This document shows positions 652-27,484 of a stretch of DNA of 64,000 nucleotides, in pieces. Made by a program: the position numbers and the translations under genes. The notes under the pieces are model-generated. The model was not told where the DNA came from. It was given only the letters and a program-made list of their open reading frames with translations, and searched no databases. Source of the stretch: Candidatus Bathyarchaeia archaeon. GTDB taxonomy: Archaea > Thermoproteota > Bathyarchaeia > 40CM-2-53-6. Positions within the stretch are counted from its first letter, which is position 1; each line of letters begins with the position of its first letter. The stretch is taken from NCBI GenBank assembly GCA_050013255.1, contig JBEKFP010000001.1:1343938-1407937 (forward strand), read 5' to 3'.

Positions 652-2435
652 TTCTTCTTGCCGCCTGATAAGTGTGCGAGTTTGATTTTATTGTGCTGGT
701 TTAGTACATCGATGATCCTGTTAGCCAATCCTCTGAACGCTTGCCATCCGGTGCCGTACTTCGCGATCATGGAACTTGTGAATGACAGTGATGCGACGGG
801 TTTCAAGTATTTCTCTAGGTCACTTAGGATCTTCTCCCTGTCTTCTTTTGATGATCCTAAGATCTGCGTTAAGACCAAGAGCAACGCGTTTACTGCAACA
901 CTTTTCGTCACTCCGTATTTCTTCGAATCATCCCACGCGCCAGGTCTAGCATCTTCCAAGTGTTGTCTTACCAGAGTAAAATAATGCGAAAGCAGATTGA
1001 CTTGCTTTTGTAGGCTCTTCACATTCGATGGATCGTCCACTGACTTGTTTACGTCGAACTTCGCATAGGTATAGAGCGGCCCAACATAGTGTATTTCGCC
1101 CGTCGTTTTGTCAACATGATTTTTCAAGAGTTCAACAGCCAAGGCGAACTTGGCAAATCCCGCCAAGGTAATCGGTCTGTCTTTTTCAATTTCAAGTACT
1201 CTGATCTTATTTTTCCACGGATCGCGAGAACTCAATGACTTAACCACAAGCGAAGGCCAAGTCAGATAGTGTTTGAGATCCTTAGTCAGACTCAGTAGGT
1301 CACAGAGGAGGGTTGGATCTATTCCCACTTGATTGTAGTTAATATCGATGAATGATTTCGCTTGGCTTTCACGACCGATGTTCTTCAATCCCACTACGAT
1401 AAGATCGAATTTCTCTTGGGGCTGCGGCGAGTCAGGTGGTGGTTCCGAGAACTTCGTTCGTGTGAAGCCATATAGTCGATGCTGACCATCTACGATCCAT
1501 GCAGAACAATATTTCTTCGGAATTTGGAGGATGCCTTCGAGTGGATTTGAGGCGCTCTTTGTGAATATGACTTCGCTGGCGATTTCGTCATCAAAAGCGA
1601 TGAGTATTGCATTTGGGATGAGTGCACGACCAGCTAGAAAACGCCCAATCTCTTCTATGCGACGCTCTCGAATCATTCTTTGATATGCAAATTCTGGCTT
1701 GAAACTTCGTCGAAAAACATAGGAAATAGGCAAAAGCTGATGAGGCGCAAGAGTAAATATGTACATTTCTTGGTTGTTACCGATTCCGGGCTGTCTAACC
1801 ATTATCGCCGGCCTGGGAACTGAGCCCCCCTCTTCCTCTCTTTCGATTTCGAAGTCTTTGAAGACGGCATACTTAGTCCACTTACCGAGAGCTTTCACGA
1901 TGTGACCATAGTAATCGAGCGCTGGTCCATTCAGAACTTGTACTTCACGATCCGCGGCATATTTCATCATTTCCTCATTAGGTGCATAGTTGTCTAGTGC
2001 GATAACCATCTTCACCCTCGTTGTCTTATCAAGGACGGTGGCGGTGAACCTCCCGTCTAGACTGGTTTTGATCGTAAGTGTTCCCTTTTCTCTGACGATT
2101 TCATCACGCCAATGACACCATTTGTCCACCAGGTTTTGGAACTTGACGTTGGCCGCTGTTGTGCAGTACGTGATCACAAGAACCTCTTGATGCCAAGCAC
2201 AGACGTCCAGGTCAGTTTCTGAACTGGTCGTTGTCAAAATCTTGACTGCTCTGTCAGTGAGGAAGTCAGATCTCTCAAAAATTGATTTGACTCTATTTAT
2301 GAGGGGAAGATCTTTCTGTCTGTCGCCGTGTGAGTCAGCAGGCATATCTTCCATCCGCCAAGTGCCCTCTATTTGATTCTTATTGTTATGCGACTGTGGC
2401 CTGATTAGGGGTTGCGCAACGCGTATTCTTCGCAT
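648..2435 (-). CDS. DGQHR domain-containing protein (DndB/ParB-like superfamily)
   Basis: AYQRMI...RI..I..FL, IPNAILIAF and AWIVDGQHRLYGF motifs, plus F.DIN..Q. True start may be the ATG at 2354. Confidence 0.9.
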   Translation of the reverse strand: MRRIRVAQPLIRPQSHNNKNQIEGTWRMEDMPADSHGDRQKDLPLINRVKSIFERSDFLTDRAVKILTTTSSETDLDVCAWHQEVLVITYCTTAANVKFQNLVDKWCHWRDEIVREKGTLTIKTSLDGRFTATVLDKTTRVKMVIALDNYAPNEEMMKYAADREVQVLNGPALDYYGHIVKALGKWTKYAVFKDFEIEREEEGGSVPRPAIMVRQPGIGNNQEMYIFTLAPHQLLPISYVFRRSFKPEFAYQRMIRERRIEEIGRFLAGRALIPNAILIAFDDEIASEVIFTKSASNPLEGILQIPKKYCSAWIVDGQHRLYGFTRTKFSEPPPDSPQPQEKFDLIVVGLKNIGRESQAKSFIDINYNQVGIDPTLLCDLLSLTKDLKHYLTWPSLVVKSLSSRDPWKNKIRVLEIEKDRPITLAGFAKFALAVELLKNHVDKTTGEIHYVGPLYTYAKFDVNKSVDDPSNVKSLQKQVNLLSHYFTLVRQHLEDARPGAWDDSKKYGVTKSVAVNALLLVLTQILGSSKEDREKILSDLEKYLKPVASLSFTSSMIAKYGTGWQAFRGLANRIIDVLNQHNKIKLAHLSGGKKK

Positions 2436-2604
2436 CTGTGGAACAAATAAGATTCAGAACTGAAACAGCTTCCTTCCGATCATCCAACACATGCGGCCGG
2501 GTGAGGACAGTGATCCTTGATGGGCCGGATTCCGGGAGTCCGGCTGGATGGATTTGTTAGGGGGCACCTCCCCTAACAGCAAACACCTACACCAACCGTT
2601 TCAA

Positions 2605-2699
2605 AGTGTGTGTGTGTGGGTCTAATGGTGCGAGCGCTCGAATTTGAACCGGTTCATATATACCGGTAAATTGGGGTCAGAATCCCCTGCCCCGCACCA
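2605..2699. repeat. Mosaic intergenic repeat, copy 1 (two back-to-back GCACCA cores)
   Basis: Reverse complement aligns to 8981-9055 (TTCTGACCCCAATTTACCGGTA...GGTTCAAATT...CGCACCA...GACCCACACAC). Confidence 0.9.
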
Positions 2700-2782
2700 C
2701 GTACGAATCCCAGACATTTCAGAAGTTTTGAGTAGTATCAGTCTTGGTCTCTATTCTTTGATCATCCGCTGGGGTCTTGATT

Positions 2783-3520
2783 TTATGGTTCTTGAAGCAT
2801 ATGTTGTTTATTGCCAAACCGGTTATGGTGCATGAAGTCCTTTACGTCGCGGCGCACTCGCAGATAGTCAGCTAGCGCAGAGCGGGGGTAGCCCACTCGG
2901 GCGGCAAAGGCAATCTTCATGTATTCAGGAATATTGAGAATCTTTTTCACCTCTTTCTCGACGGGGATTCCGCTGAAGACGCTCAGTATATGAAAGCCAA
3001 TCCCCAGGGATTGAGCCATGAGCCACATGTTCTCCATAACGCAGCCGAGACTCATAATCCCCAAGACATCTCCCTCCGAAGCAGGCGCCCTTTTCCTGGA
3101 GTCATAGATCACTATCAAAAGCGTTGGGCTGCCCTGAATGCGTTCCTGCAGGGGCCACGGGCCCTCACGAACAGCTTCATCCAACCTAGCAGGATCACTC
3201 CATGACGGGGGGAACATGGCGGCGAGAATTCCAACCTTCTTTTGGAGGAACTCCTTCTTCGAGAACGAGAGTTGTTCATAGTTTTCCCTGATGAACTCCT
3301 CTGATACCTGAGACTTTATGTGCCCTATTTCTTTCAGAATTTCCTCGTCGTCGATGACGAGAACTTCGAAGTTCTGCATGTTGTGGGCCGTGGGCGCCCA
3401 GCGCCCGGCTTCAAGAATTTGCCTCAAATCCTTTTTGGTCACAGAACGCTCCCGATCAAAGAGTCCCCTCGACGAGTGCCTTTCCTCGATGAGCTTCAGG
3501 AGATTAGTCATGATGACCAT
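2783..3520 (-). CDS. Nitroreductase family protein
   Basis: IEERHSSR, ILEAGRWAPTAHNMQ and ENMWLMAQSLGIG motifs. Confidence 0.9.
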   Translation of the reverse strand: MVIMTNLLKLIEERHSSRGLFDRERSVTKKDLRQILEAGRWAPTAHNMQNFEVLVIDDEEILKEIGHIKSQVSEEFIRENYEQLSFSKKEFLQKKVGILAAMFPPSWSDPARLDEAVREGPWPLQERIQGSPTLLIVIYDSRKRAPASEGDVLGIMSLGCVMENMWLMAQSLGIGFHILSVFSGIPVEKEVKKILNIPEYMKIAFAARVGYPRSALADYLRVRRDVKDFMHHNRFGNKQHMLQEP

Positions 3521-3651
3521 CCCACCTTCAGAACCGCCAGAAAATGAACGTTTCCGACAAGTATCACAGGTCCTTCAAGCGCTAGAATCCGGAGAGACTG
3601 TACCTACAATAATACCGTCTACTAGGAATTCTTACACCAACAATGGGAGCC

Positions 3652-3690
3652 TATATGTACCGGTAAATTGGGGTCGGCTGGTGCACACAC
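3652..3690 (-). repeat. Mosaic intergenic repeat, copy 2
   Basis: TATATGTACCGGTAAATTGGGGTCGGCTGGTGCACACAC; shares TACCGGTAAATTGGGGTC with copies 1 and 3. Confidence 0.85.
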
Positions 3691-3723
3691 GAAATGACAT
3701 CCATGTCTTGATTTTGGGTTAAG

Positions 3724-5037
3724 TTACATCGCAACGTAATGGACTCGCCTTAGCTTCTCACCTTCTGGGCGCCACGTAAGCTGCTTGTCTACGCGCAACT
3801 GCATGAAGTTAACGACATTATCAACGACCTTGTTCAGCCTGCTTATGGCTAGGGAGTTGTTCCTAAGCTTCTTCAAATCTTCTTTCGTGTTCTCGCTGAG
3901 GCTTGAGAGGTTGTACCAGATCCCGAAGGGCGGGAGGATGTAACCCAAGTTCTGTAGGACCACGAACACGTCCCAGGCCACTTTGTAAGCGCCGTCCTCG
4001 TGGCCATTCACGAATATGCCGACGGGCCGGCCCGCCCAGTCAACATGTTCAACTTTCAGCCCAATATCCTGCAGGTTCGTCAACCGATCCAAGAATACCT
4101 TAAGCCGGCTGTTCATCCCCTCCCAATTGATCGGCGTAACCACAATCAACGAGCGGGCACGAACGAGTTTCGGGTAGATCTTACGCATGTCATCATGCAT
4201 ATTGTTGCAGGGAAACCTGCAGAAATCATCTTCCAGGGAATAGCAAGCCCAGTTATGCTCAATCTTATGTTTCGCCAAGTCCACCCAATCATACGTCACC
4301 GCCGGGTGCGCCTCTCTAAGCCTCTCGATGATTCTTGGGGCTATGAAGCCGCTGACAATATGTTGCGGGTGGGCGCTGGCGCTTATGATGAGCACGTCGA
4401 TAGGAGGCTGCGCGGCGATGTCACGCCAGAACTCAATTCGCCGATCAAGAAACTCGCTCTTCTGCACGCTTTTCGTTAAGTATTCAGTTACTGCGTCTTC
4501 CTCAATCGGGTACGTCGCCTTATGGGTCAAGAGTTGGGCCGCGAGCTTCTCTTTGGATTTGATTAATTCCCAAGGCGCCTTACACTTTGCACATAACTTG
4601 GGCGGCAACCGGCCGGTGTACTCATCCATGCAGATCAAGCATTTCCAAACAGAATTGTCATTCGCCTGTTCCTCCGGCGGTTCCAGCTTGAACGCAAATT
4701 CGTCCGCTACGGGTTTGCGTGGGGAGGTTGCTTGTCGGGAGATTAGTATTTCGTCGCCTTCCACTTTCACCGCGTAACTTTCCACTTGCTCAGGCGCACC
4801 CTTAGGAGCCTTCCCTGTCTTCGGGTCGTACCTGTACCCATGCCAGGGGCAAACAACGTTTCCATCCTTGTCGAAGGCACCGTCGATTAACGGCCCACCC
4901 ATATGCGCGCAAACGTTCGAAATAGCAAAGTAACCATTATCAATCTGAAAAACCGCAACCGACTTTCCTTCAACCTGGCCTAGGTATCGGTTATTTGAGA
5001 AATCCTTCTTCGAACAAACACGGACAAACGATTCCAT
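3724..5037 (-). CDS. Fusion of Rieske [2Fe-2S] ferredoxin, rubredoxin-like CxxC domain and flavodoxin/NADPH-dependent FMN reductase (iron-sulfur flavoprotein-like)
   Basis: CAH...CPWHG (Rieske), WKCLIC...LCAKC, then C...C..PC...DDM and VTPINW...RLKVFLDRL. Likely start is ATG 5037 (ORF track starts at 5088). Confidence 0.8.
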   Translation of the reverse strand: MESFVRVCSKKDFSNNRYLGQVEGKSVAVFQIDNGYFAISNVCAHMGGPLIDGAFDKDGNVVCPWHGYRYDPKTGKAPKGAPEQVESYAVKVEGDEILISRQATSPRKPVADEFAFKLEPPEEQANDNSVWKCLICMDEYTGRLPPKLCAKCKAPWELIKSKEKLAAQLLTHKATYPIEEDAVTEYLTKSVQKSEFLDRRIEFWRDIAAQPPIDVLIISASAHPQHIVSGFIAPRIIERLREAHPAVTYDWVDLAKHKIEHNWACYSLEDDFCRFPCNNMHDDMRKIYPKLVRARSLIVVTPINWEGMNSRLKVFLDRLTNLQDIGLKVEHVDWAGRPVGIFVNGHEDGAYKVAWDVFVVLQNLGYILPPFGIWYNLSSLSENTKEDLKKLRNNSLAISRLNKVVDNVVNFMQLRVDKQLTWRPEGEKLRRVHYVAM

Positions 5038-5138
5038 AACATTCCATGAGCGTGAGACGTATGAAAACCTAGGCCTACTCAGCCTCAATCAACGGAGAGT
5101 AAATAAGAGAAATTCGCCATCGAGACAAATGAACAAAC

Positions 5139-5534
5139 ATGACAACCGATGAGGAGATCTTAGAAGAATTAAGGAAGATTCGAGAAGCACTTTCACCGAA
5201 ACCTACTCCGCCGCCGCCAAAGCCCAAAGGTATGTGGGCCGAGTTCATAGAATTCATCGGCAAAGCGGGGGTAATCGGGTTGGCTGTAGGCTTCATAATG
5301 GGTACTTACATTGGCAAAGTGGTCTCGGCACTTGTTCAGGACATTATAATGCCCATCCCCGGCGCGCTGTTGCCGGGAGGCGATTGGAGAAAGGCGGTAT
5401 TCACCATCCCAATCGGACAGGGGATGAATTTTGCTGTGGGTGACTTTGTGGGCGTTATGTTTGACTTTCTCATTGTCGCGGTTGTCATCTTCTTCATCGC
5501 CAGATACGCTATGAGAGCTATGGAAAAAAAGTAA
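5139..5534 (+). CDS. mscL: Large-conductance mechanosensitive channel MscL, atypical N-terminal extension
   Basis: EF.EFI...GVIGLAVGFIMG...VVSALVQDIIMP and GDF...FDFLIVAVVIF motifs. Confidence 0.85.
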   Translation: MTTDEEILEELRKIREALSPKPTPPPPKPKGMWAEFIEFIGKAGVIGLAVGFIMGTYIGKVVSALVQDIIMPIPGALLPGGDWRKAVFTIPIGQGMNFAVGDFVGVMFDFLIVAVVIFFIARYAMRAMEKK

Positions 5535-5572
5535 CCCAGGAACAGCCTCGAACCGCCAGCTGCCTGCGAGGT

Positions 5573-6739
5573 TTACTGTATTTCTTCTTCTCCTTCAGTC
5601 ACGGTTATCCCACGTTTTCCAGACGCCAGTTCCTTCAAGAACTCGCTGGGCTCGACGCAAAGCTCAGGGGGCAGGGTGCCTCGTTTAGTTATTCTTCCCG
5701 ATGCAAGCCACTGTGCGATTACGGAAGGGGGTGTTCCTGTGCCGACCGTCCCGCCGCCAATGTTCCACCGTTCGTTTGGAACGCTGACAGCGTCTACCCA
5801 AATCCTGACCCGCTTTCCATCACGCTTACCGAATCCCTCAACCCTTTGGCAGTCAACATCTAATTCTACACTCGTGGGTTTCGGGAGGGAGTCAATGACC
5901 GAAGTTAACACGTCGTAGGGGACGATGTCTTGGCCCCTAACCTTGACGGGCGTCTTCTTAGTCAAACCCAGCTGGGTTAGGAGGACGATTGATTTTGTGA
6001 ATTCGGGTGGGTATGCGACTATGAAATCCATTTCCTTGATCCCTTTTCCTATGTTGAACGGCATCGTGGCTAGCTCAGAATGAATGGTGTAATACCCCTC
6101 CATCCTGCCGATGGGGTCGGGTAGTGTGAAAGATTCCTTTCCAGAAAGCGCCGGAATCTCTTGAATCCTCCCGTCGCGAAGTATGATCGGTGGGATTGTA
6201 AACTCATCCAGGACAGTTCGTATCGCGTAAGGGACCTGGAATCCTCCGCCTCCTTTGACGACCGTGGAGCCGCTGCGCAGTTTCATCACCTCCACCTCAT
6301 CCAACTTTTCAGCGACGTAGGCTCCCATCACATTCATTGTTCCAGGCGTACTGCCCATTCCCAAAACGCAAGTAACATTCGCGTCATTCGCAGCCTTGTC
6401 CAACTCCAGCTGCTTCTTCGTCATGTGGTATAGTCCACCGAGGTCGAGGTAGTGTATGCCCGCTGAGATGGCTGCTTGCATGACCTGCAGGTTCAACTCG
6501 TACCAGGTCGAGTTAACAACCGCATCCCAGTCTCTCATAATCCCGGTTAACTGTGCGTTTTCACGAGCGTCCGCGGACAGTGGGACGGCGCGTTCGTCTC
6601 CTAAACTTCGCGCCGCTGCTTCGGCTCGTTCAAGGCGCAGGTCCGCAACCCCTACTTTCTCTACTTTGCTGTTCCCTAGCATGTTCCTGATTGTGACCTG
6701 AGCCATAGCTCCGGCTCCGCCAAGCACTAAGATTCGCAA
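5573..6739 (-). CDS. Saccharopine dehydrogenase / lysine 6-dehydrogenase-like oxidoreductase
   Basis: RILVLGGAGAMA Rossmann motif, HYLDLGG, GMGSTPG, HSELATMP. Start probably TTG 6739. Confidence 0.85.
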   Translation of the reverse strand: MRILVLGGAGAMAQVTIRNMLGNSKVEKVGVADLRLERAEAAARSLGDERAVPLSADARENAQLTGIMRDWDAVVNSTWYELNLQVMQAAISAGIHYLDLGGLYHMTKKQLELDKAANDANVTCVLGMGSTPGTMNVMGAYVAEKLDEVEVMKLRSGSTVVKGGGGFQVPYAIRTVLDEFTIPPIILRDGRIQEIPALSGKESFTLPDPIGRMEGYYTIHSELATMPFNIGKGIKEMDFIVAYPPEFTKSIVLLTQLGLTKKTPVKVRGQDIVPYDVLTSVIDSLPKPTSVELDVDCQRVEGFGKRDGKRVRIWVDAVSVPNERWNIGGGTVGTGTPPSVIAQWLASGRITKRGTLPPELCVEPSEFLKELASGKRGITVTEGEEEIQ

Positions 6740-6833
6740 ATGAAATCGCCCCTCGTATGTCCTAACGGCATATTCCACCAGGTGGAAATAGCCTTATCAG
6801 ACTTTATCCCGTAGAGCTAAAGGTTGATGAATA

Positions 6834-7433
6834 ATGGGCCTCCTTCGTTCTATCCTTGTCGGCCTGCTCGTTCTTGTCGCCGTTGTTTCAGTTGCTTTCA
6901 TAGGATACAGTGGCCTGAACCCTCACGTAGTAACTGTGACACAACAGCAACTTCTAACAAACACTCAGAGCCTTTTCAGCACACAAACGGTGACCAGCCT
7001 TAGTATGGTAACGAGTTTTCAAACGGTCACAAGCGCAACAACCGCTGGGTTTGGAAATGTTTACACTGGGCCTGGGTACGGGTACAATCCGAATTACCCG
7101 AACTGTTCGTATTATGGATGCTACTACACACCACCCGCCTACGCTTCTATCTCTGATCTCTGCAAGACGACAGGCCAGAATAGTACGGTTCAATGCTCCG
7201 GCTACCTTCACGAAGCCTCGAGCGCGTGCACAGAACTTGCAATTCCCTACTACAACCCGGACATTTTGGAGTCAACGGCCTACCTGTACTTGACGTTGTA
7301 CAATCTGCCGTCAAACCATCCTGCAAGCGGCGCATGGGTGACGGTGACCGGGGAGCTCAACCAAGGCTACTCTCCAGGGTCCTATGGCGTACTTTGCACA
7401 AGTAACTACATCAACGTGGCTTCAATATCATAA
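6834..7433 (+). CDS. Hypothetical membrane-anchored/secreted protein, Thr/Tyr/Cys-rich
   Basis: N-terminal hydrophobic helix, Thr-rich linker, small C-terminal domain. Confidence 0.6.
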   Translation: MGLLRSILVGLLVLVAVVSVAFIGYSGLNPHVVTVTQQQLLTNTQSLFSTQTVTSLSMVTSFQTVTSATTAGFGNVYTGPGYGYNPNYPNCSYYGCYYTPPAYASISDLCKTTGQNSTVQCSGYLHEASSACTELAIPYYNPDILESTAYLYLTLYNLPSNHPASGAWVTVTGELNQGYSPGSYGVLCTSNYINVASIS

Positions 7434-7555
7434 AGAAAAAAGAGTCAGCTGGCCAACTAACAATTATATTCAAGCCATGCTAGGCTGCGCCTACGACTCA
7501 CCTAAAGTGGCTTCATTTTATATTAAACCTCAGCTAATGAAGGGATGATGTCACT

Positions 7556-7933
7556 TTGTTTGAAGGTATCGTCGGCCTAATTATCCAACTAATAATCGCC
7601 GGTATCATCGGCGGCATCTTCGTTTGGTTGGCAGGGAAAGCTCTAGGAGCACCAAGGGCCACCTATTGGCATGGGATTCTAATCGTTGTTTCAGCGATAA
7701 TCCTCAGTGACATCATAGGTTACTTCCTGGGCGGTCTCGGCTGGATTAAGACCATCATAGAAATTATCGTAATCCTTCTGCTGATCAAACACTTCTTCGC
7801 GGTCGGATGGATAAAGGCAATTGTAATTGCAATCTTGGCTGTGATCATAGCGATCATAGTCACCTTTGTCCTTGCCCTGCTCGGGCTTGCCTTCGCCGCC
7901 ACAGCACTGAAGGGCCTAATCCCAGGACTATAA
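7556..7933 (+). CDS. Hypothetical 4-TM membrane protein
   Basis: Highly hydrophobic 125 aa ORF preceded by a TATA-like TTTTATATTAAA. Confidence 0.7.
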   Translation: MFEGIVGLIIQLIIAGIIGGIFVWLAGKALGAPRATYWHGILIVVSAIILSDIIGYFLGGLGWIKTIIEIIVILLLIKHFFAVGWIKAIVIAILAVIIAIIVTFVLALLGLAFAATALKGLIPGL

Positions 7934-8743
7934 TCGTCTCGCCTTACAGGGCGAGACTACGTCCTTATGCTTCGCAGGGGGGACTGATTTGGTAGATTTC
8001 TTATCATTCGGTCTTTTCTTACTCAAGAGCAGTGCGCCGATAAGGCACGTCACCAATGTGACGGGAACAACCTGCGGCAGGATCTCCGGAGTAGGAATGG
8101 CGGGGGCGTAAACTAGGCCCAACACCCCGTTACCCTGCACAGTCACGTCGGTAATGTATGAAGTCTGATTATCCACGGTGATCTGACCTTGAGTGAACCA
8201 TTTTACGAAGGAATCGGACGCGTTACGGGGCGCTGCTTCAGCAACGTAGCTTCCCACTGGCAAAGTGGCATTCTGTCCATCCGTCAAGCAGATGGGGCCG
8301 GAGGCGTTTGCGTAATTTAGGAAGCAAACAAAGCCCCGGGTACCGGTGAAGGTGACGATTCCTTCAGTTTGAGTTGCCGGCAGGAAGACGGCAGCCAGGT
8401 TGCCGTCCCCGTTCACCTCGAGCAGCGTATTATTGCCTTGAATGTCCCTTACTGTGACATTGCCCTGGGTGATCCAGTGGCTGAACGTCGCGGAGCTGGC
8501 ATTGTAAAGGAAGGCTGCGAGCGTATAGTTTCCGAAGTCTAAGGTGAAGTTCTGGCTTTCCGCCAAGCAATAAAGCTTGGTGCTGTTGGAGTCGAATATG
8601 CATGCATACCCTAAGTTGCCGCCTGTGTATCTTATGTTCGCGGCCGTCTGTGAATGCACCGGTGCTACCGATACCATAAAAATCAGAAGCGCTACAATCG
8701 AGAGGGTAAGGAAGAGTTTGTTCAAAGTCTTGAAGCTCCGCAC
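7928..8743 (-). CDS. Secreted surface protein with two tandem beta-rich repeats and PE(F)-CTERM-like sorting tail
   Basis: Signal peptide; repeats F(S/V)(H/K)W.TQG..TV...V.G.G.L; C-terminal PTPEILP + TM helix + KKR. Confidence 0.65.
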   Translation of the reverse strand: MRSFKTLNKLFLTLSIVALLIFMVSVAPVHSQTAANIRYTGGNLGYACIFDSNSTKLYCLAESQNFTLDFGNYTLAAFLYNASSATFSHWITQGNVTVRDIQGNNTLLEVNGDGNLAAVFLPATQTEGIVTFTGTRGFVCFLNYANASGPICLTDGQNATLPVGSYVAEAAPRNASDSFVKWFTQGQITVDNQTSYITDVTVQGNGVLGLVYAPAIPTPEILPQVVPVTLVTCLIGALLLSKKRPNDKKSTKSVPPAKHKDVVSPCKARRL

Positions 8744-8980
8744 AAAGTTGTTTTTCGCAATTTATGGTAACCATGACCATGTGAACTGAACTAAGCGAGT
8801 TAGAGGAAATTGAAAGGAGAGCTCAATTTTAAGGTCGCGATGAATGGATGGCGCAATTAACCATGCCGTCCATACAGAACCATCGGCCCATCAGTTGCCA
8901 GTTCGATCAAATGGCTAACTGCTAACTGGGTGTGGGCTCTTCGAGATTGCCCTCAGGCCTTTTACAAGTTTGAATATGGG

Positions 8981-9106
8981 TTCTGACCCCAATTTACCGG
9001 TACATATAACTCGGTTCAAATTTGCTTGCCCGCACCAGCTGACCCACACACACATCAAACGAACGACGTTCCGATTTTGAACGGCCGCGCCAGTGATATT
9101 ACAGAC
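8981..9106 (+). repeat. Mosaic intergenic repeat, copy 3 (two cores)
   Basis: Cores GCACCA 9032-9037 and GCGCCA 9087-9092; matches copies 1 and 4 in inverted orientation. Confidence 0.9.
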
Positions 9107-9118
9107 TAAGCGAGGCTT

Positions 9119-11212
9119 CTATTTTGTTAGGCCACACTGTTTCCTGAGCTTCTTCACCAGTTCCAGGTATCGGGGGTCGGCCCTTGCCCTGGCGAAGAGG
9201 GGCGAGTACGTCACCGCTGAAACAACTAATGCACGGGCTTCGAGGGCCGTGTTCAAGTACTCGAAGAAGGAGTCGAGGTCTCCGAGAGCATGGTAGACGT
9301 ACGCGATGAAGTTGAAGCCTACTGGACCCGGTTTGGCGTCCTCAATCTTCTTGATCGCGAGGAGCGCCTTCTCGCTGTCGCCCTCCATGGCCGCGATGAA
9401 CCCGCCCATCCAGGTGACCCGAGGATTGGTGGGATCGAGCTTCTCCAATTTCGCAAGGAGCTCCTTAGCCTTCTCTAGGTCCCCTTTGGCTAGGTAGTAC
9501 TCCGTCATACCCCTGTACGCGAACGCCGGCGCCAGCTGCTCACCCTTCTTCCAGAACTCCAACGCCTCCTGCTCCCTCCCAGTCCAGAGATATGCCTCCC
9601 CGACACGGTAGATGAAGTCGGGTCTGATGGGGTCCAGTCGGTAGGCTGTCTCGATCTGTCCAACCATCTCCCCCGGATCTCCTTTGAGTGCCGCCAGCTC
9701 GAACAGGTTCCAGTAGGGGTCTGGAAGGTTAGGGTTGAGTTCCAGCGCCCTTCTGGCCTCCGCCTCTGAACCGACGACGTCGTCCTCGTTGAAGAGCATG
9801 GTCGAGAGCGACGAGTGGGCCTCCGGAAGGTTCGGGTCGAGGTTGAGGGCGCGCTCCAGTAGTCGCCTCACAGTCGCGACGGAGATGTCAACGGGCTCAC
9901 TTCCTTTGTCAGAAAGTAATTGGTGACATTCTGCCTCGCCCACGTACGCTCTCGCGAATCTGGGATCCAGCTCGATGGCCTTCTCGAAGAGAGCTATGGC
10001 CTGCCTAAGTGAAGCCTCGGTCTGCTCCCTCAACAGTTCCCTGCCCCGCAGGAAGCAGGTGTACGCCTCAGTGTTCTCGGTAGGCTTCTTCTCCAGGGTT
10101 CTCTTCTCAGAGTCGAGGAGCTGGGTCTTGAGTTCTCCGGCGACCTTCTCAGCTATCTCGCTTTGGACGGCGAAGATGTCGTCCAGATTCTTGTCGTAGT
10201 GGGAAGACCAGAGGTGTTCTTCTGTTCCGGCGTTGATCAGCTGGACTGTGACCCTGATTCGGTTGCCTGCTTTCCTCACGCTGCCTTCTATCAGAGCCCC
10301 GATATTCAGTTCCTTTCCTACTTCCGAGGCTCCCTTCTGAGAGCCCTTGTACTTCATCACCGACGTTCGAGCTATGACCCTCAGACTCTTCACTTGGGCA
10401 AGCCTGTCAATCAGCTCCTCAGTCATGCCGTCCGCGAAGTACCCATCTTCAGGGTTGGAACTCAGGTTTGCAAAAGGCAGAACTGCAATCCGCCTCTTGT
10501 CCAGGCCCAATCCGGTAGCCTCCTGTCTCTCGGCGGCTAACCCTTCAAGTGGAAACTCTTTCTCCGCGGTTTCGATTCCATGCATCCACTTGATTCGTAG
10601 GTACTTCCGCGTTCCGCCTTCAGATTCCTTCTCGAAGATCTCAACGTTGCCGTCGAAAAGGTCCACGACTGCCTGAACGTCCTCGGCTGAATGCATGTAC
10701 GGGTTGAGGACGGATAGGGTTGTGATACTCTTCGACCGCAGCCGTTCAAGAAGTTCCGTAAGCCATTTCCGTGTCTGCAACGCCTTATGGCGAAGCAGAA
10801 TGTCCGAGAGGATGTTGATAACCAAACGTTTCGGTTGAGTTGAAGCGATAACTTCATTGATTTGTAGGTTTACGTCCGTTAGGTTCTCGATTCCCTTCCC
10901 TGGGATGATGTTTCTTGCTGGTGAGACGGGTTTATCGCTGCAAACCAACGACCTGACATTCTTACCCATATTTTGCGTAATCGTTTCGGCTGAGGAAATC
11001 GTGCGGCATATCAGTAGGGCCTCTTCCTTTGAGGCTCTGAGGAAGTTTGCAACGAGAAGCGGAACCTCATCACTTGCAGCGGCATTCAAAACGATGGAAG
11101 AAGCTGCGAGAAAGCCGCCTTGAAGCGCTTCATCCAGCCTACCGTAACCAGTCGAAACCTTCGTGCTCACAGAACTGGCTGAGACGCCTTCAGAAGTCAT
11201 ATAACTCGCCAT
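9119..11212 (-). CDS. Degenerate KaiC/RAD55-like domain fused to TolB-like N-terminal domain and TPR repeats
   Basis: STGYGRLDEALQGG (RecA-like start, no Walker A); IAVLPFANLS...YFADGMTEELI...VIARTS...EGSVRKAGNRIRVTVQLI; multiple TPRs. Confidence 0.85.
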   Translation of the reverse strand: MASYMTSEGVSASSVSTKVSTGYGRLDEALQGGFLAASSIVLNAAASDEVPLLVANFLRASKEEALLICRTISSAETITQNMGKNVRSLVCSDKPVSPARNIIPGKGIENLTDVNLQINEVIASTQPKRLVINILSDILLRHKALQTRKWLTELLERLRSKSITTLSVLNPYMHSAEDVQAVVDLFDGNVEIFEKESEGGTRKYLRIKWMHGIETAEKEFPLEGLAAERQEATGLGLDKRRIAVLPFANLSSNPEDGYFADGMTEELIDRLAQVKSLRVIARTSVMKYKGSQKGASEVGKELNIGALIEGSVRKAGNRIRVTVQLINAGTEEHLWSSHYDKNLDDIFAVQSEIAEKVAGELKTQLLDSEKRTLEKKPTENTEAYTCFLRGRELLREQTEASLRQAIALFEKAIELDPRFARAYVGEAECHQLLSDKGSEPVDISVATVRRLLERALNLDPNLPEAHSSLSTMLFNEDDVVGSEAEARRALELNPNLPDPYWNLFELAALKGDPGEMVGQIETAYRLDPIRPDFIYRVGEAYLWTGREQEALEFWKKGEQLAPAFAYRGMTEYYLAKGDLEKAKELLAKLEKLDPTNPRVTWMGGFIAAMEGDSEKALLAIKKIEDAKPGPVGFNFIAYVYHALGDLDSFFEYLNTALEARALVVSAVTYSPLFARARADPRYLELVKKLRKQCGLTK

Positions 11213-11390
11213 CAGTCACGACCTGCCAGATATACTAACTCCCGATAAGAGTTCTGCTTCACATCCGCCTCCGCATTCTACACCTTGACGAAGCTTCCCC
11301 AGATAGTTACACAAGGATTGATGTTTGCTGGTGCTTTGGAAACGGCGGTCCTATCACAGACGGACTGTCGATTCTAACCATTGTTCTCTT

Positions 11391-11546
11391 GTGTGTGGTA
11401 TCACTGGTGCGTCCGTTCAAAATCGGAACGTCGTTCGTCTAGTTGTGTGTGTGTGTGCGCGCACCAGCTGACCACACACACACTTTTCCAAACGACGACG
11501 TACGACGGTTCAAATTACGACGCCCGCACCACCAGTACCACACACA
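11391..11546. repeat. Mosaic intergenic repeat, copy 4 (three cores)
   Basis: Cores at 11405-11410 (-), 11461-11466 (+) and 11526-11531 (+). Confidence 0.9.
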
Positions 11547-11549
11547 TTT

Positions 11550-12287
11550 CTACTGAACTATCGTTACTTCGCCGGTCTCTGAAACGTTCAGTCGTTGCCA
11601 TCGTGAGTCGAATTTCTTACCGCGCATTCTTCTGATCCGCACAAGTTGCGTGATCTCTCCCTCTTTATCTTCACATTTGAAGTCGATAATTCCATCGTTA
11701 ATCGTCTCAAACTGAGAGCGAAACGTTTCCGACACTGTTCCCTTCAGGATTGAATAAATGGTTACGTTCTGAAGGGGTCTTGAGAAAGGAATATGTCTCG
11801 TTCGCCAAAAATCCAGCACATTAATCTCGGCATTGTATCTTGTCATAATGGCAGTGTTATCATCGACATGTACCCACCACTTTTCGCCCTCAGGAATTCC
11901 CTTCTCTCTTCCCTTCTTGACGAATTGGGCGTGGTTGATGCTTAGGTCAGGAATCTTCAGTGATTTGGCGACCGGATCCTCCTGCTCAACGGGATTTAGT
12001 CCCCCCATCTGCACAGTAAGACTGTCCACGATCCGGAACAAACCGTCATCTTGAAGCTTGGCAAGGTCTAATCCGAATTTTCTCAGATCGTGTTCTATAT
12101 CGGCCGGAGGGTGCTGGAATGTATGGTACAATGCCTTGTGGTCGTTCCTTAGTGCCTGGGCTGTAATCGTTAGCGAAGCTTCGTACCATGCGGAGTCTGG
12201 CTCGAATTCTACCAGTAAATTGCTGCCAAATTCAACGCCATCTGGAAGAAGTCGTTCAAAGATGGGAATGAACAGATTTGTTAGCAA
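11550..12287 (-). CDS. KaiC/RAD55-like ATPase-domain protein, Walker A degenerate
   Basis: IP....LPDGVEFGSNLLVEFEPDS, DGIIDFK, VRIRRMRG..FDSRW; paralog of the next gene. The ORF-track extension to 12446 runs through a repeat, so TTG 12287 is preferred. Confidence 0.8.
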   Translation of the reverse strand: MLTNLFIPIFERLLPDGVEFGSNLLVEFEPDSAWYEASLTITAQALRNDHKALYHTFQHPPADIEHDLRKFGLDLAKLQDDGLFRIVDSLTVQMGGLNPVEQEDPVAKSLKIPDLSINHAQFVKKGREKGIPEGEKWWVHVDDNTAIMTRYNAEINVLDFWRTRHIPFSRPLQNVTIYSILKGTVSETFRSQFETINDGIIDFKCEDKEGEITQLVRIRRMRGKKFDSRWQRLNVSETGEVTIVQ

Positions 12288-12354
12288 ATCCCTTGTCCAA
12301 TATCTGATAACTCCGAATAGCTTGAATTTCTGTCTTCCGATTACGCGCCCCAGT

Positions 12355-12452
12355 TGTGTGTGCCTACAATGGTGCGAGCATCGAAATTTGAACCGTCGTC
12401 CGTCGTCTTTAGAAAGTGTGTGTGGTATGCTGGTGCGCACACACACAGAAAA
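12355..12452 (-). repeat. Mosaic intergenic repeat, copy 5 (two cores)
   Basis: Reverse complement aligns over ~100 bp with 11444-11546. Confidence 0.9.
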
Positions 12453-12463
12453 TCCTGAGGCCT

Positions 12464-13165
12464 CTACTTGTCGAGGGTGACTTCGAAATTGTCACCGATC
12501 TTGACTTGATGCCAGTGTGAATCGAAGTGCGCGTCCCTCATGCTCCTTATTCGAATCATGGTTCTTGTCTCTTCGGCTACTTCTTCGAGTTTGAAATCTA
12601 TGATCCCGTCAGCAGCTGCTTCCAACTGCTTGTAGACAGAGTCGCTGTGAAAGCCCCTAATCAACCCCGCTAAGTTCGTCGATTTACGCAACTTCTGGGC
12701 TGGAAAGTTTCTTGTGAGCAGATACTCAACCCATGACCGCTCATCGTTGAACCTAGCGAATGTTGAGATGTTGTCGGCGATTCTCAACCAGTTAGGATCA
12801 GGTGGCTCGCGCATGACCTGTCTCGAAAAGACTATGTTTAGATCGGCAGCCTTCAACGATTCCTGCGAATACTTCTCACTTGATTTGAGACCCAGCGTAG
12901 CCGTGTACCAATCCTGAATACGAAGTTTGTCTTCCTTTTCGAGGCTTTCGACACTAACCCCGAGTCTGCTAAGTTTGGAACGAATGTCATCCGGTGTTTG
13001 GGTGAATAAGTTGTAACTGACTTTCCCTCCCTGCTTGAGCCATCCTGCCGCGATCGTCAGAGACGCATTGATCCATTGCGACGCAGGATCAAACTCCACT
13101 AACAGCATGGAACCGCCCGGGACGGGGTCGGTAGTCAAATCCTCTATCATAGGAATCTTGGGCAA
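12464..13165 (-). CDS. KaiC/RAD55-like ATPase-domain protein, Walker A degenerate
   Basis: GSMLLVEFDPASQW, ADGIIDFKLEE and IRIRSMR...FDSHW motifs. Confidence 0.8.
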   Translation of the reverse strand: MPKIPMIEDLTTDPVPGGSMLLVEFDPASQWINASLTIAAGWLKQGGKVSYNLFTQTPDDIRSKLSRLGVSVESLEKEDKLRIQDWYTATLGLKSSEKYSQESLKAADLNIVFSRQVMREPPDPNWLRIADNISTFARFNDERSWVEYLLTRNFPAQKLRKSTNLAGLIRGFHSDSVYKQLEAAADGIIDFKLEEVAEETRTMIRIRSMRDAHFDSHWHQVKIGDNFEVTLDK

Positions 13166-13210
13166 GTTCGGAGCACACAGTGGTCATGTGTCGAGTTTAC
13201 AGATTTGGCG

Positions 13211-13250
13211 TTTTCTGTGTGTGTGCGCACCAGCTGACCCACACACACAG
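13211..13250 (+). repeat. Mosaic intergenic repeat, copy 6 (symmetric form)
   Basis: CTGTGTGTGTG-CGCACCAGCTGACC-CACACACACAG: perfect 11-bp inverted arms around a 14-nt spacer. Confidence 0.9.
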
Positions 13251-13302
13251 ATCCCTCCGTTTGGAGCCAAGAGTTATCATCTAGAGTTAGAGGCTCACAC
13301 GA

Positions 13303-14064
13303 CTAAAGTGCTGAAAAAGTGAGGTAGGCTCCGACTGTAATCAGAACAAGGCCGATAGTTCGCTTCACGTTTGTCTGACTCAGCCTTTGAGACCCAAAAT
13401 AGCTTCCCAGCTGAGCTGACACAAGTAAAACTGGGATAGTCGGAAGGAATACCGGCGACGAGAAGATCAAGCCACCCAGCCGCGGTATTCTAGCCACTAT
13501 GCCTGACACGGAATTGAGAAGAATAAACACTGTCGTAGTTGCCGCCGTCGTCTTAGGCTTAGCCATCCCCGCCAAGATCAGGACAGGGGCCAAATACACA
13601 CCGCCACCAATCCCAGTCAGCCCAGCAACAGCTCCGATGACCATGCCGATCATTATCTTGAACGGCCATTTCAGATCAAAGTGACCTAACGGGAATGTAA
13701 TGAGAATCAAACTAGCTCCACCACAAGTAATCGCCAACCCCATGACGATTTTCAGCAAGACGTCAGGCAGAACAAATAAGCCTGCAAGGAACGCTGCTGG
13801 AACAGAGCCGACAATAAACCACGCGAGGTCGCGTGAGAAATGCACGCGCCATCGAAATATCGAACTGGAGGCAGACACGACATTAAACAACAAACCGCCA
13901 AAAGAGGACTGTGCGGCTGACAATCCGATTAGGAGCAAGATCGCGGTAAACGTCGAGCCACCCGCAAACCCAGCTAACGTGTAGAACAAACTAGCCAACC
14001 CTAACAGAACTACGATAATGACCGCGCCGAAGGCTTCCAATTGAAATCCAGACAGCCAGTTCAC
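13303..14064 (-). CDS. Sulfite exporter TauE/SafE family protein
   Basis: GFAGGS and AGLTGIGGGVYLAP motifs; ~8 TM helices. Confidence 0.85.
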   Translation of the reverse strand: MNWLSGFQLEAFGAVIIVVLLGLASLFYTLAGFAGGSTFTAILLLIGLSAAQSSFGGLLFNVVSASSSIFRWRVHFSRDLAWFIVGSVPAAFLAGLFVLPDVLLKIVMGLAITCGGASLILITFPLGHFDLKWPFKIMIGMVIGAVAGLTGIGGGVYLAPVLILAGMAKPKTTAATTTVFILLNSVSGIVARIPRLGGLIFSSPVFLPTIPVLLVSAQLGSYFGSQRLSQTNVKRTIGLVLITVGAYLTFSAL

Positions 14065-14133
14065 GGCGTCGGCATAAGCCTTGGTAAGCAGAAACGATTA
14101 CATTCGAGCAGAGTTTTGTGCTTATGAAAGTGT

Positions 14134-14553
14134 TTGACTAAGTTCAAGCCGCCAAGCACAATATTGACCCAGAGACAATGGCAAGTCATACGGCTTAGAG
14201 CAACAGGCCTTACGCAAATGCAAGTTGCAAAACGCCTTCACACAAGTCGAGAGAACATCAGCATCATCGAACATCGTGCCTACGAAAACGTGAGGGCGGC
14301 GAAGGCTACCCTTGAGGCACTAGAACAGGTCTCAGACTCCAGAGAATTGATCATACCAAGTGGAACGAGCATCTTCGACGCCACATCCACGGTTCTACGT
14401 AAGGGAGACATGTTGCGAACAAAGCTGAAAATGAACGCTGATTCAATTCTAGCCATGTTACGATCCCGATGTAAACACAAGATACGTGGGCATCATTTGA
14501 CATCAGCAATCCGAATTGAGATCACCGAAGACGGCACTGTCAGAATGAGGTAA
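14134..14553 (+). CDS. Tfx family DNA-binding protein
   Basis: LTQRQWQVIRLR..GLTQ..VA..L.TSRENISIIE.RA.EN...A..TL, then IP.GT. Confidence 0.85.
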   Translation: MTKFKPPSTILTQRQWQVIRLRATGLTQMQVAKRLHTSRENISIIEHRAYENVRAAKATLEALEQVSDSRELIIPSGTSIFDATSTVLRKGDMLRTKLKMNADSILAMLRSRCKHKIRGHHLTSAIRIEITEDGTVRMR

Positions 14554-14590
14554 AATTATTTCGACTCATAACTGGATGTTTCAACGCCGG

Positions 14591-14626
14591 TTTTGTGTGT
14601 GTGCGCACCATTAGACCCACCACCAC
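14591..14626 (+). repeat. Mosaic intergenic repeat, copy 7
   Basis: TTTTGTGTGTGTGCGCACCATTAGACCCAC; CGCACCATTAGACCCAC is identical to the reverse complement of copy 1. Confidence 0.85.
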
Positions 14627-15365
14627 GAAGAACTAGATCTCTAAGTCACGGATGGTGAAGGGGACGGCCGCCGCACCCTCGTCGGCAAAGGCTACCCCAC
14701 ATTTTTCGCACTTGAATGACTGTGGAAGGGGCGCAGGCGGTCCAGACGGTTGGGCGATTTCTGCTGCAGGCTCCAGGCTCGTTTCCGTTGTCGGTTCGGC
14801 GTTGGGGGTACCCGTATTCTCATCTCCACGATCTTTCCATCCAAATCCGTGAAATTCTAGTCATTCGTCATTCGTTCGGCTTGAGGGCTGGTTGTACGGT
14901 CTTTCGGGGTTCGCCATATCGAGAATCACCCTAATTCCTTATATGTTGAAATGTACTACACAACTACAGGTGCCATGAATTGAACTACGACTATGATGGT
15001 TTGAATGAATTGTTCGACAAAGGCGCATATCACAAGGCCGGACCGTTTGGACTGAAGGGCATCATGGCCGCTTTCAGACGACACAATCTCGAGGCGCACA
15101 TACCGCTCATAATCGGATTTCTCTATGCGCTCTCTGGCGATTACATATCCCTACTCCGCCACCTAAGAATGGTCATCTAGACCCTTAGGCCACTAGACTG
15201 GCATCTAGGTTCGTCTAACGGGACACCATTCCAGCCCCGTGGGCTCGTACCCTCGGCTTTCGGTTGCATCAATCACGTGTGGTGACTAGAAGTTTTAGAC
15301 CAACTCTCTGTCTAACCCGGCACGTTTCTTAGTTGTGGTTTTCCCGGCGTCGTAAGAATTACAGT

Positions 15366-16490
15366 TCATCGTTTGTCGATGGGCACGACTTTCCGGTCCC
15401 GCGGCCCAGTGTACTCAGTTTCCGGCCGAATAAGCCGGTTGTTGGCCACTTGTTCGAGGACGTTGGCGGACCATCCGACGCTTCGGCTAGCAGCGAAAGT
15501 TGCCGTGAAAAGGTCCGGTGGTAAGCCAACGGAATCCATCACAACTGCGGAATAGAATTCCACGTTCGTATACAGCTTCTTGCGAGACTTTTCCGTCTGC
15601 AGGATGCGAATGGCTGTTTCCTCAACGCGGCGGGCCAACTCGAAGAATTTCTTGTCCGCTGTTTTGCTTGCTACGTCGCGGAGTATCTCAGCACGTGGAT
15701 CCGTGGTCCTGTATACTCTGTGCCCGAAACCCATCAGCCTTCTCCCGGCCTTCAATTCGTCTCTGATCCAAGGTTCGGCTCGGTCGGGGCTTCCAATGTC
15801 CTTCAGCATTTGCAGAGCCGGTGCTGGAGCGCCACCATGAAGTGGTCCCTTTAGGGCTCCGATGGCGGCCGTTATGGCCGAGTACATATCAGACCATGTG
15901 GACGCCACAATCCTCGCAGTGAAGGTTGAGGAATTCATACCATGGTCCGCGAGAAGAATCAGGTATTTGTTGAGTGCGTCTACCTTGGCCGCTTCAGGTT
16001 CTTTTCCGGTGAGCATGTAAATGTAATTCGCAGCGTGCCCAAGCCCAGGTAGTGGATCCACGGGTTCCTGGCCGCGGCGAAGACGGTCAAACGCAGCGTT
16101 GATAGTCGGCATCTTCGCAGTTATTGCAATTGCGTCCGAGATTTCCGGTTTCTTTAGCGGAATGCCCGTCCCGAGCGTTGAGATGGCGGTTCGAAGCACA
16201 TCCAGGGTGTTCGAGGTGCGGGGTAGGTTACGAATCGTTGCCTTCAGGTCCGCAGGAATCGATCGTTCCATGCTTAGCCGCTTAGTCAGGTCGCCGAGCT
16301 GCGTCCTAGTCGGTAGGTCGTCATTCCAAAGCAGGTAGGCGACTTCTTCGAAGGCGAGGTTCGCGGCTAGGTCGTGAATATCATAACCCCGGTAAATCAG
16401 GCGCCCCGCGTTTCCATCAATCATGCAGATACTGCTATCGTCAATGATTACCCCTTCAAGTCCCTTCGCGATCGCCTTGGCAGCCGTCAA
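15366..16490 (-). CDS. Citrate synthase / 2-methylcitrate synthase
   Basis: KGLEGV, LADHGMNSSTF, LKGPLHGGA, LMGFGHRVY..DPRA and NVEFYS motifs. Confidence 0.95.
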   Translation of the reverse strand: MTAAKAIAKGLEGVIIDDSSICMIDGNAGRLIYRGYDIHDLAANLAFEEVAYLLWNDDLPTRTQLGDLTKRLSMERSIPADLKATIRNLPRTSNTLDVLRTAISTLGTGIPLKKPEISDAIAITAKMPTINAAFDRLRRGQEPVDPLPGLGHAANYIYMLTGKEPEAAKVDALNKYLILLADHGMNSSTFTARIVASTWSDMYSAITAAIGALKGPLHGGAPAPALQMLKDIGSPDRAEPWIRDELKAGRRLMGFGHRVYRTTDPRAEILRDVASKTADKKFFELARRVEETAIRILQTEKSRKKLYTNVEFYSAVVMDSVGLPPDLFTATFAASRSVGWSANVLEQVANNRLIRPETEYTGPRDRKVVPIDKR

Positions 16491-27064: not shown

Positions 27065-27283
27065 GGCCCGGGATTAGATCCATGAGGTGACTAACGGGTA
27101 GAACTTTGCTATCATCAATCAACCGCCTCATTCTATATGCTACGGCGCAGACGAAGCTAGTTTGAAAGTCAGCCTCAATCAATTCCGGTAGCCTATCTAG
27201 CTGTAGTTCGCCCCCGAACCTTGGTACGGGATTCGCTAATCGAGAGTTAACCCTAAATTTCCGATTCCTCTGTGCTCGAATGA

Positions 27284-27380
27284 AGGTACCGGGGGAGCTG
27301 GGAAAATCCCGGCTGAGAGGACGGCTCACGTCGCCGTCGACCCCGTGAACCTGATCCGGGTAATGCCGGCGTAGGGAGTG
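27284..27380 (+). ncRNA. TPP riboswitch aptamer
   Basis: GGGGAGC...GGCTGAGAG...GACCCCGTGAACCTGATCCGGGTAATGCCGGCGTAGGGAG matches the TPP consensus; lies upstream of thiT. Confidence 0.95.
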
Positions 27381-27484
27381 TGCTAAGTGAACGCTAGTCG
27401 TGCAACTTTCCGCAATCCATCTAGAGCGTTCCATATCGCTGTCCTCGGTAACCTTCAACCAAAACGTGGAGGTGAAATTGGACA

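Follow-up and report, generated by a model that had tools for sequence, protein, structure and literature searches.

Repeat family in the window and its distribution

The stretch of DNA analysed here, hereafter called the window, comprises 64,000 nucleotides from a Candidatus Bathyarchaeia archaeon and corresponds to positions 1343938-1407937 of contig C1 of its genome (G000), which has 2.46 Mb in three contigs, is 100 % complete and is approximately 88 % coding. Its first 15 kb contain a family of mosaic repeats which an earlier reading, made from the sequence alone (the sequence-only reading), had proposed to be recombination sites delimiting gene cassettes. These repeats are probably junction sequences of Cas1-driven, casposon-like transposons that have stacked small cassettes of accessory genes into an array, and comprise tips of element ends, target duplications of 14 bp and landing sites that resemble tRNA. 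The gene for an intact lone Cas1 of 407 amino acids lies upstream of the window, about 9.3 kb from its start (C1:1333417-1334640); the window itself, as the sequence-only reading had noted, contains no recombinase gene.

All seven repeat loci and all twelve GC(A/G)CCA cores reported earlier were found at their places, the cores at 2626 (-), 2694 (+), 3679 (-), 9032 (+), 9087 (+, GCGCCA), 11405 (-), 11461 (+), 11526 (+), 12370 (-), 12431 (-), 13227 (+) and 14605 (+). The three linkers said to be reused between cores recur exactly, and the simplest form of the repeat, CTGTGTGTGTG-CGCACCAGCTGACC-CACACACACAG at 13214-13250, has the perfect 11-bp hairpin arms ascribed to it. No copy occurs beyond window position 14635, as had been stated for the remaining 49 kb or so. 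The pattern GCACCA-N7-CACACA is present six times in the window, compared with 0.02 occurrences expected from 100 shuffles. The observation that each locus lies within about 85 bp of a stop codon says little at this coding density, for which the intergenic share is the useful figure: genome-wide, 34 of 39 cores with two features of the repeat are intergenic. These approximately 39 cores fall into about 13 clusters, to which single copies are added, and the family thus extends beyond the window.

Relatives were searched for the repeat pattern in 22 congeners (genomes of the genus are numbered G0xx, extracted loci Lxxx, and contigs C1, C3 and so on), with the reversed pattern as a control. The pattern was found in 22 of the 22 genomes and also in a small number of further genera within the order, and the control gave approximately none. 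Public contigs of related Bathyarchaeia come from peat, wetland and soil. Five repeat-bearing contigs (L031, L046, L055, L069 and L087) are filed under bacterial metagenome-assembled genomes (Acidoferrum, Methylomirabilota, Terriglobia) and are most likely mis-binned contigs of Bathyarchaeia.

When 245 copies were aligned on GCACCA, the right half was constant, C-GCACCA-N3-GACC-(CA)4-6, and the left half was of three kinds: (TG)n, from which the hairpin form results, ...ACGACGGTTCAAAT-N5-NGCCC, or, more rarely, a G-rich run. The core C-GCACCA-N3-GACC has the appearance of a target-site duplication (TSD) of 14 bp, and the (CA)n and (TG)n arms that of transposon end tips.

The 16,283-bp Cas1 element and the first locus

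The first repeat locus contains the right end of a putative Cas1-encoding element of 16,283 bp (C1:1330273-1346555), which starts 13.7 kb upstream of the window and whose right-hand 2.6 kb, recognized from tips, TSD pair and Pfam matches, occupy window positions 1-2618. The element ends in (CA)7 at C1:1330273 and in (TG)6 at window 2618, and its tips and TSD pair span the Cas1 gene. The 14-bp duplication GGTCTAATGGTGCG (reverse complement CGCACCATTAGACC) at 2619-2632 on the minus strand is identical to C1:1330259-1330272, directly before the left tip. The terminal inverted repeats are approximately 130 nt long and 82 % identical, the left one lying inverted at C1:1330273-1330405 and the right one at 2487-2618 on the minus strand, with its (TG)n tip at 2606-2618. 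Beyond the duplication, at 2633-2660 on the minus strand, CCGGTTCAAATTCGAGCGCT runs into it with the spacing of a tRNA gene and would be the pseudo-tRNA leader of the occupied target. A contig of 16,293 nt ending at window 2609 was assembled in three metagenomes.

Within the window the element carries a DNA methylase gene (1-651, minus strand) and a DndB-like gene (648-2435, minus strand), both recognized with Pfam. The cargo of the whole 16.3-kb element includes an abortive-infection protein (AIPR), the DndB-like protein, an N6/N4 DNA methylase, a 750-amino-acid HATPase_c_3 protein and several open reading frames (ORFs) without a family, and resembles a defence island.

The cassette array at 9012-14617

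The window region 9012-14617 is organized as three inserts behind one leader, separated by three identical copies of CGCACCAGCTGACC. At its head (8978-9030, plus strand) a linker is followed by the pseudo-tRNA leader CGGTTCAAATTTGCTTGCC (9012-9030); window 2609-2685, from the first locus, recurs near this head as an inverted copy of 77 nt with 83 % identity. The first copy of the predicted target duplication (9031-9044, plus strand) precedes E1 (9045-11459), a 2.4-kb mini-element with one gene for a KaiC-ATPase/TPR protein (9119-11212, minus strand). E1 is delimited by its tips, by terminal inverted repeats of approximately 60 nt and by a TSD matching at 14 of 14 positions, and E1-related copies, a paralogue at C3:237122 and others in two further species (genomes G011 and G021), keep the same end. 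The second copy (11460-11473, plus strand) is followed by E2 (11474-13225), a composite unit of 1.75 kb with two KaiC-like genes and outer flanks identical at 14 of 14 positions. E2 has an internal repeat locus at 12355-12452, consisting of a reversed leader, reversed targets and tips, and a 55-nt inverted repeat (11477-11531 and 12370-12424). The third copy (13226-13239, plus strand), which is the loop of the simplest form, precedes E3 (13240-14603), a unit of 1.36 kb with genes for a TauE-type exporter (minus strand) and a TFX-type regulator (plus strand), in which the inverted repeats are limited to tips of about 10 nt. The array closes at 14604-14626 (plus strand) with a last target copy, CGCACCATTAGACC (14604-14617), which matches the other three at 11 of 14 positions, and a decayed tip, CACCACCAC.

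Contigs from four peat and wetland metagenome runs were compared with window 1-16000. Joints with short sides (20-39 nt, at 5-15 times higher depth), which most likely derive from other loci or from more abundant relatives, were excluded. In three metagenomes, contigs of 100 % identity span the E1/E2 junction, and equally identical contigs bridge the 12355-12452 locus.

Read in this way, the simplest form would be the junction of E2 and E3, that is, right tip, duplication and left tip, and the linkers would be the insides of element ends, often with a further copy of leader plus target. Such additional copies in the element ends would produce nesting, as at 11474-11546, and hence the mosaic look of the family. 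Most units of the family have 0.6-5 kb, lack Cas1 and carry one to three accessory genes. Terminal inverted repeats are present in the C1 Cas1 element (130 nt) and in E1 (approximately 60 nt), and perfect 14-bp direct repeats at the Cas1 element, E1, E2 and at least five other units; several units lack them.

The tRNA-like leader and the 14-bp target

The sequence-only reading had missed the likeness of the repeats to a tRNA 3' end. The left half of the leader type follows the order of a tRNA gene, with T-loop, 3' strand of the T-stem, 3' strand of the acceptor, discriminator A and encoded CCA, and its spacing (TTCAAAT+5+7+A+CCA) is that of real tRNA genes of G000. Many tRNA genes of this genome have introns, and CCA is encoded in all those seen; a near-identical tRNA 3' end, ...GGGGTTCGAATCCCCT(C/T)CCCCGCACCA, is common to three loci (C1:211590, 310426 and 524981).

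The leader has no sign of an RNA fold. At most four of five T-stem pairs are possible in 67 of 68 tRNA-like copies (median 2-3), RNAalifold found no structure in the 68 units (mean z-score -0.2), ARAGORN found nothing in the window, and no repeat matched Rfam at the gathering thresholds, the only three matches in the window lying elsewhere. On these four grounds an RNA element was rejected. Since the tRNA spacing is kept while the T-stem is unpaired and no fold is conserved, the constraint is on the DNA sequence, and the GGTTCAAAT...GCCC module is a DNA-level copy of a tRNA 3' end without an RNA fold. The three Rfam matches are archaeal RNase P RNA (59482-59776, 175 bits) and a TPP riboswitch (27281-27395, 71 bits), both ordinary, and an intron-containing tRNA gene (34558-34670, 46 bits), which ARAGORN missed.

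A real tRNA gene in a relative (locus L056) ends in ...GGCCGCACCA and is directly followed by CTAGACC-CACACACAC-TTTTCAAACGACGAACGACGG; it is an occupied target of the same kind. The target of the family is a tRNA 3' end or its copy, with a duplication, CGCACCA-N3-GACC, which starts with CGCA. Conservation of the leader suggests that it may be needed for targeting.

Genome-wide, perfect duplications (14 of 14 positions) were found in 9 of 79 tip pairs with the correct geometry and within 20 kb, compared with 46 of 1892 unlinked tip pairs (2.4 %) and 2 of 63 pairs in reversed geometry. Some of the perfect matches use the rare variants CGCACCATTAGAGC and GTATCAATGGTGCG.

Cas1 genes in the host genome and in relatives

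In addition to the Cas1 encoded upstream of the window, a second intact Cas1, of 404 amino acids, is encoded on contig C3. The two ORFs match the Pfam family Cas_Cas1 with E values of 7e-49 and 1e-52, and Cas2 was not found in the G000 genome; both are thus Cas1-family integrases without Cas2 or a CRISPR array. The C1 protein aligns over its full length with the casposase of Methanosarcina mazei (PDB 6OPM; E value 3.9e-74, compared with 5.9e-24 for the best CRISPR Cas1), the catalytic E/H/E residues (numbered according to PMC6977970) are conserved and the C-terminal helix-turn-helix (HTH) region aligns.

The second Cas1 gene lies in a putative element at G000:C3:228079-237121 (L135:9079-18121) with G-rich tips, CCGCCCCCGCCGCC.../...GGCGGCGGGGGCGG, and is adjoined by an HNH nuclease gene, as in described casposons, and by a TIR-domain gene. 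This G-rich tip recurs directly beside reversed targets in G014 (L018:~1000) and at C3:~239030.

Cas1 genes or fragments are also found inside repeat islands of relatives. Eight of eight 20-kb Cas1 loci hold between 1 and 10 typed repeat ends, compared with about 0.8 expected from the genome-wide density. Homologues of the casposase are full-length in 5 and fragmentary in 8 of the 22 congeners. Besides Cas1, the only ORFs to recur are two small ones (122 and 121 amino acids, without a Pfam family), in 3 of the 8 Cas1 loci.

No family B polymerase domain was found in the Pfam-scanned ORFs of either Cas1 element, and PF03175 (protein-primed family B polymerase) had no match anywhere in G000, G014, G002 or G004. 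The elements were therefore filed as a polymerase-less variant and not as canonical casposons. The lone PF03175 match among five genomes is at G017:C4:956660-957331. A divergent Cas1 fragment, with 45 % identity to the casposase next to the window, lies about 11 kb away, and the locus may represent a classical casposon, complete with polymerase, within this genus.

The nitroreductase segment and the variable accessory DNA

The segment at 2673-3675, which carries a nitroreductase gene, has at its start 27 nt that copy a real tRNA 3' end (2673-2699), and direct repeats of 23 bp lie on either side of the segment (2656-2678 and 3653-3675). In another species, G004 (contig C42, L015), a segment with 96 % identity follows immediately 3' of a tRNA gene that is complete and has an intron; at the far end of that segment lies a decayed second copy of the tRNA 3' end. 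The window keeps just the last 27 nt of the tRNA found whole in G004. The nitroreductase gene is present in the four metagenomes at 5-15 times the depth of core genes and with approximately 6 % differences, which suggests that more abundant relatives also have it.

Next to this segment, at 3676-3690 on the minus strand, a solo reversed target with a short (CA)3 tip, GGCTGGTGC-ACACAC, marks the edge of a conserved core block, and synteny with G004 resumes at 3698. Both G004 and G014 are collinear with the window over 3698-7933 and from 14890 onward, and 7933-14890 is absent in both. Cassette genes recur elsewhere at 93-96 % identity, compared with 76-85 % for core genes. The TauE/TFX pair (13297-14569), for example, is 93 % identical in G004 contig C13, where its context is different. 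At that locus (L012, G004:C13:20105-24376) the pair is flanked by apparent transposase gene fragments, not by repeats. The proposal that the repeats delimit cassettes of one or a few genes holds in so far as they are sites of site-specific insertion in variable accessory DNA; the recombination-site mechanism attached to it does not.

At 80 repeat-anchored loci of other genomes the commonest neighbours encode KaiC-like ATPases, a luciferase-like oxidoreductase, peroxiredoxin, GYD and DoxX proteins, and Cas1 fragments are the only enzyme to recur near the repeats. In the islands of G000 and these loci (L019-L098) taken together, the small KaiC-like ATPases (approximately 230-300 amino acids) and KaiC/TPR fusions lead with 15 members at 11 loci; they may be a preferred cargo, or the elements may make use of them. 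The idea that the repeats are parts of duplicated segments was rejected, an all-against-all BLASTP of the island proteins having given few paralogues between islands.

Alternative explanations

The sequence-only reading favoured an integron- or shufflon-like system in which a recombinase crosses over at GCACCA, and the single-gene units between repeats, their variable content and the modules seemingly swapped at the core do resemble one. However, an integron-type integrase (IntI) with an adjacent attI, a folded family of attC-like sites and a uniform site orientation were not found; the orientation is mixed, and the three tyrosine recombinases of the genome (PF00589) are unlinked to the clusters. 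What was taken for a crossover core acts as a duplicated 14-bp target around elements with inverted tips, and the swapped modules would be different elements abutting the same target, which leaves crossover at the core very unlikely. Tyrosine integrases could also have been involved through elements of the tycheposon type, which target tRNA genes: the tRNA 3' end would be restored at every insertion, a partial copy of the tRNA would stay behind, and the repeats would be leftover attachment (att) sites between cargo blocks. With this agree the exact tRNA 3'-end geometry of the modules, the position of several clusters just downstream of tRNA genes, the two integrases that adjoin other tRNA genes, the true copy of a tRNA 3' end at window 2673-2699 and the G004 segment beside a full tRNA with a decayed copy at its far end. 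The repeated unit is nevertheless a 14-bp direct duplication within inverted (CA)n tips and terminal inverted repeats and not an att identity segment of 25-50 bp, the leaders copy no single tRNA and have no T stem, no integrase lies in or beside the clusters, and the Cas1 element has exactly these ends. An origin of the family as att remnants is thus improbable, and it may explain the nitroreductase segment alone.

A selfish repeat of the repetitive extragenic palindrome (REP), bacterial interspersed mosaic element (BIME) or miniature inverted-repeat transposable element (MITE) kind, moved in trans by an HUH enzyme or REP-associated tyrosine transposase (RAYT) or by another transposase and building up in tolerant intergenic DNA while the genes between copies stay in place, comes close to the REP/BIME-like alternative named earlier. 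The copies are indeed mosaic, palindromic, intergenic, present in both orientations and genus-wide, but they are clustered, not dispersed, the duplications of 14 bp flank gene-carrying segments and not the hairpin, and a gene and its end repeat travel together. The corresponding Y1/RAYT gene (PF01797) was not found in the 100 % complete genome, and its two TnpB genes are both far from the clusters; a repeat moved in this manner is hardly to be expected here. Still less probable is a host function as terminators, mRNA-stability hairpins or protein-binding sites. Location downstream of stop codons, and the stable hairpin form flanked by T and A runs, would suit such a function, but the orientation to genes is mixed, the tRNA-like type has no conserved fold, there is no Rfam match, and the repeats occur only in variable islands and are absent from core regions.

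Several observations weigh against Cas1-driven insertion as the source of the repeats. The target has few variable positions, so that some matches must arise by chance (the background being 2.4 %), nearest tip pairs match at 14 of 14 positions in only 4 of 34 cases, and many units have no clean duplication. The right flank of E3 differs at 3 of 14 positions, and most mini-units share only a (CA)n tip of 9-13 nt, which is simple sequence. Part of E2 (E2b, 12438-13225) and the C3 Cas1 element have inverted 14-mers as flanks (X'...X), which a single insertion cannot produce; inversion across tips or terminal inverted repeats, or composite mobilisation, is assumed for these, and inversion fits E2. 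Neither the nitroreductase segment nor the left edge of the 7-kb block (7933) has a recognizable tip, and the segment may have come by another route or as a captured flank. At the Cas1 genes of relatives no spanning TSD better than 12 of 14 was found under a strict tip rule, and a casposase homologue was not found in 9 of the 22 repeat-bearing congeners, including two at 96-98 % completeness. Polymorphic junctions were not seen: among metagenome contigs from samples taken between 2017 and 2025 the array does not differ, and the contigs of the four runs contain no joint that removes a cassette and has long flanks.

Discussion

By analogy with M. mazei and Aciduliprofundum boonei, the casposase would recognize as leader (...ACGACGGTTCAAAT-N5-NGCCC) approximately 30 bp in which a tRNA gene's T-loop and acceptor 3' strand are mimicked, and in the adjoining CGCACCA-N3-GACC it would cut the two strands 14 bp apart. 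This target would consist of the three final bases of the acceptor, followed by discriminator A, encoded CCA and seven further bp. The 3' ends of an element with tips CACACAC.../...GTGTGTG would then be joined, and gap repair would duplicate the 14 bp. Repeated use of the leader-proximal copy would stack elements as leader-X-E-X-E-X, with junctions that read (TG)n-X-(CA)n. As many of the elements carry leader plus target just inside their ends, each insertion would bring landing sites with it and elements would nest; units without Cas1 would have to be moved in trans. Observed here are the anatomy (tips, terminal inverted repeats and direct duplications of 14 bp), an intact lone Cas1 resembling a solved casposase, the tRNA geometry and the variable accessory surroundings; we infer that the insertions are the work of this Cas1, that mini-units are moved in trans and that the mixed orientations result from later inversions or composite mobilisation.

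Described casposons are rare, large and polymerase-bearing, and casposons are thought to be ancestral to the CRISPR adaptation machinery.

The nearest known systems are the family 2 casposons (MetMaz of M. mazei, AciBoo-C1 of A. boonei; casposase 6OPM), with TSDs of 14-15 bp. In M. mazei the duplications of 14 bp start with a conserved CGCA and overlap the last 4 bp of a tRNA-Leu gene, targeting requires about 30 bp of the tRNA in addition to the duplication, and casposons stand in tandem, separated only by the shared duplication, with solo terminal inverted repeats left behind (PMC4779613, PMC6977970). Shared with the present elements are a Cas1 with C-terminal HTH and E/H/E, terminal inverted repeats, a 14-bp duplication starting with CGCA at a tRNA 3' end with upstream tRNA sequence as leader, tandem stacking, HNH beside one Cas1 copy, and solo terminal inverted repeats. 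In contrast, the Cas1 elements described here have no family B polymerase, the tRNA genes encode CCA and the duplication is CGCACCA..., the tips are (CA)n, the host belongs to the Bathyarchaeia, the elements carry their own pseudo-tRNA landing sites and most are natural mini-elements of 0.6-5 kb with ordinary accessory genes and no Cas1. An engineered mini-casposon both excises and integrates in vivo in M. mazei (PMC10359463), which makes units without a polymerase plausible.

With CRISPR arrays built by Cas1-Cas2 the array shares a Cas1-type enzyme, a leader, a short repeat duplicated at each insertion and leader-proximal growth, window 9012-14617 reading leader-X-insert-X-insert-X-insert-X. 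It differs in having kilobase cassettes with inverted tips and not spacers of about 35 bp, a 14-bp repeat, mixed orientations, and no Cas2, crRNA processing or interference genes. Integron arrays similarly consist of small, mostly single-gene cassettes at a hotspot, with short sites between them and an enzyme in trans, but here the enzyme is Cas1 and not a tyrosine recombinase, duplication and inverted tips take the place of attC, and there is neither an attI/Pc platform nor a uniform orientation. Site-specific pile-up at tRNA genes or other fixed sites, partial tRNA-like repeats and variable islands are also features of Prochlorococcus tycheposon islands (10.1101/2020.12.28.424599) and of Tn7-type attTn7 islands; these differ in their enzymes, which are of the tyrosine or DDE class, and in having att identity segments or Tn7 ends. 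A full-text literature search found no paper on casposons in Bathyarchaeia or on natural mini-casposons, although such papers may still exist.

A wider reading, offered tentatively and with somewhat more doubt than confidence, is that a polymerase-less casposon lineage is alive in soil Bathyarchaeia, its Cas1 moving natural mini-casposons in trans, each with single accessory genes, tips of about 10 nt and element-borne tRNA-like leaders. Stacked behind these leaders, the units would amount to a Cas1-driven 'integron' with the order leader, repeat and insert, would be a main way in which co-occurring Bathyarchaeia exchange genes and would be a natural analogue of the step that has been proposed from casposons to CRISPR arrays. 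In annotation, these repeats should be recorded as junctions of mobile elements, neither as regulatory features nor as RNA features. If the reading is true, it would be new that casposase enzyme and target logic build arrays of small cassettes that have a leader and, as their repeat, a duplicated stretch of 14 bp, and the casposon-to-CRISPR scenario would become testable in a natural system. It would also be new that casposase-type transposition could do without a dedicated polymerase, and that accessory genes for redox enzymes, KaiC-like ATPases, channels and defence would have in it a route of movement among uncultured archaea of soil and peat.

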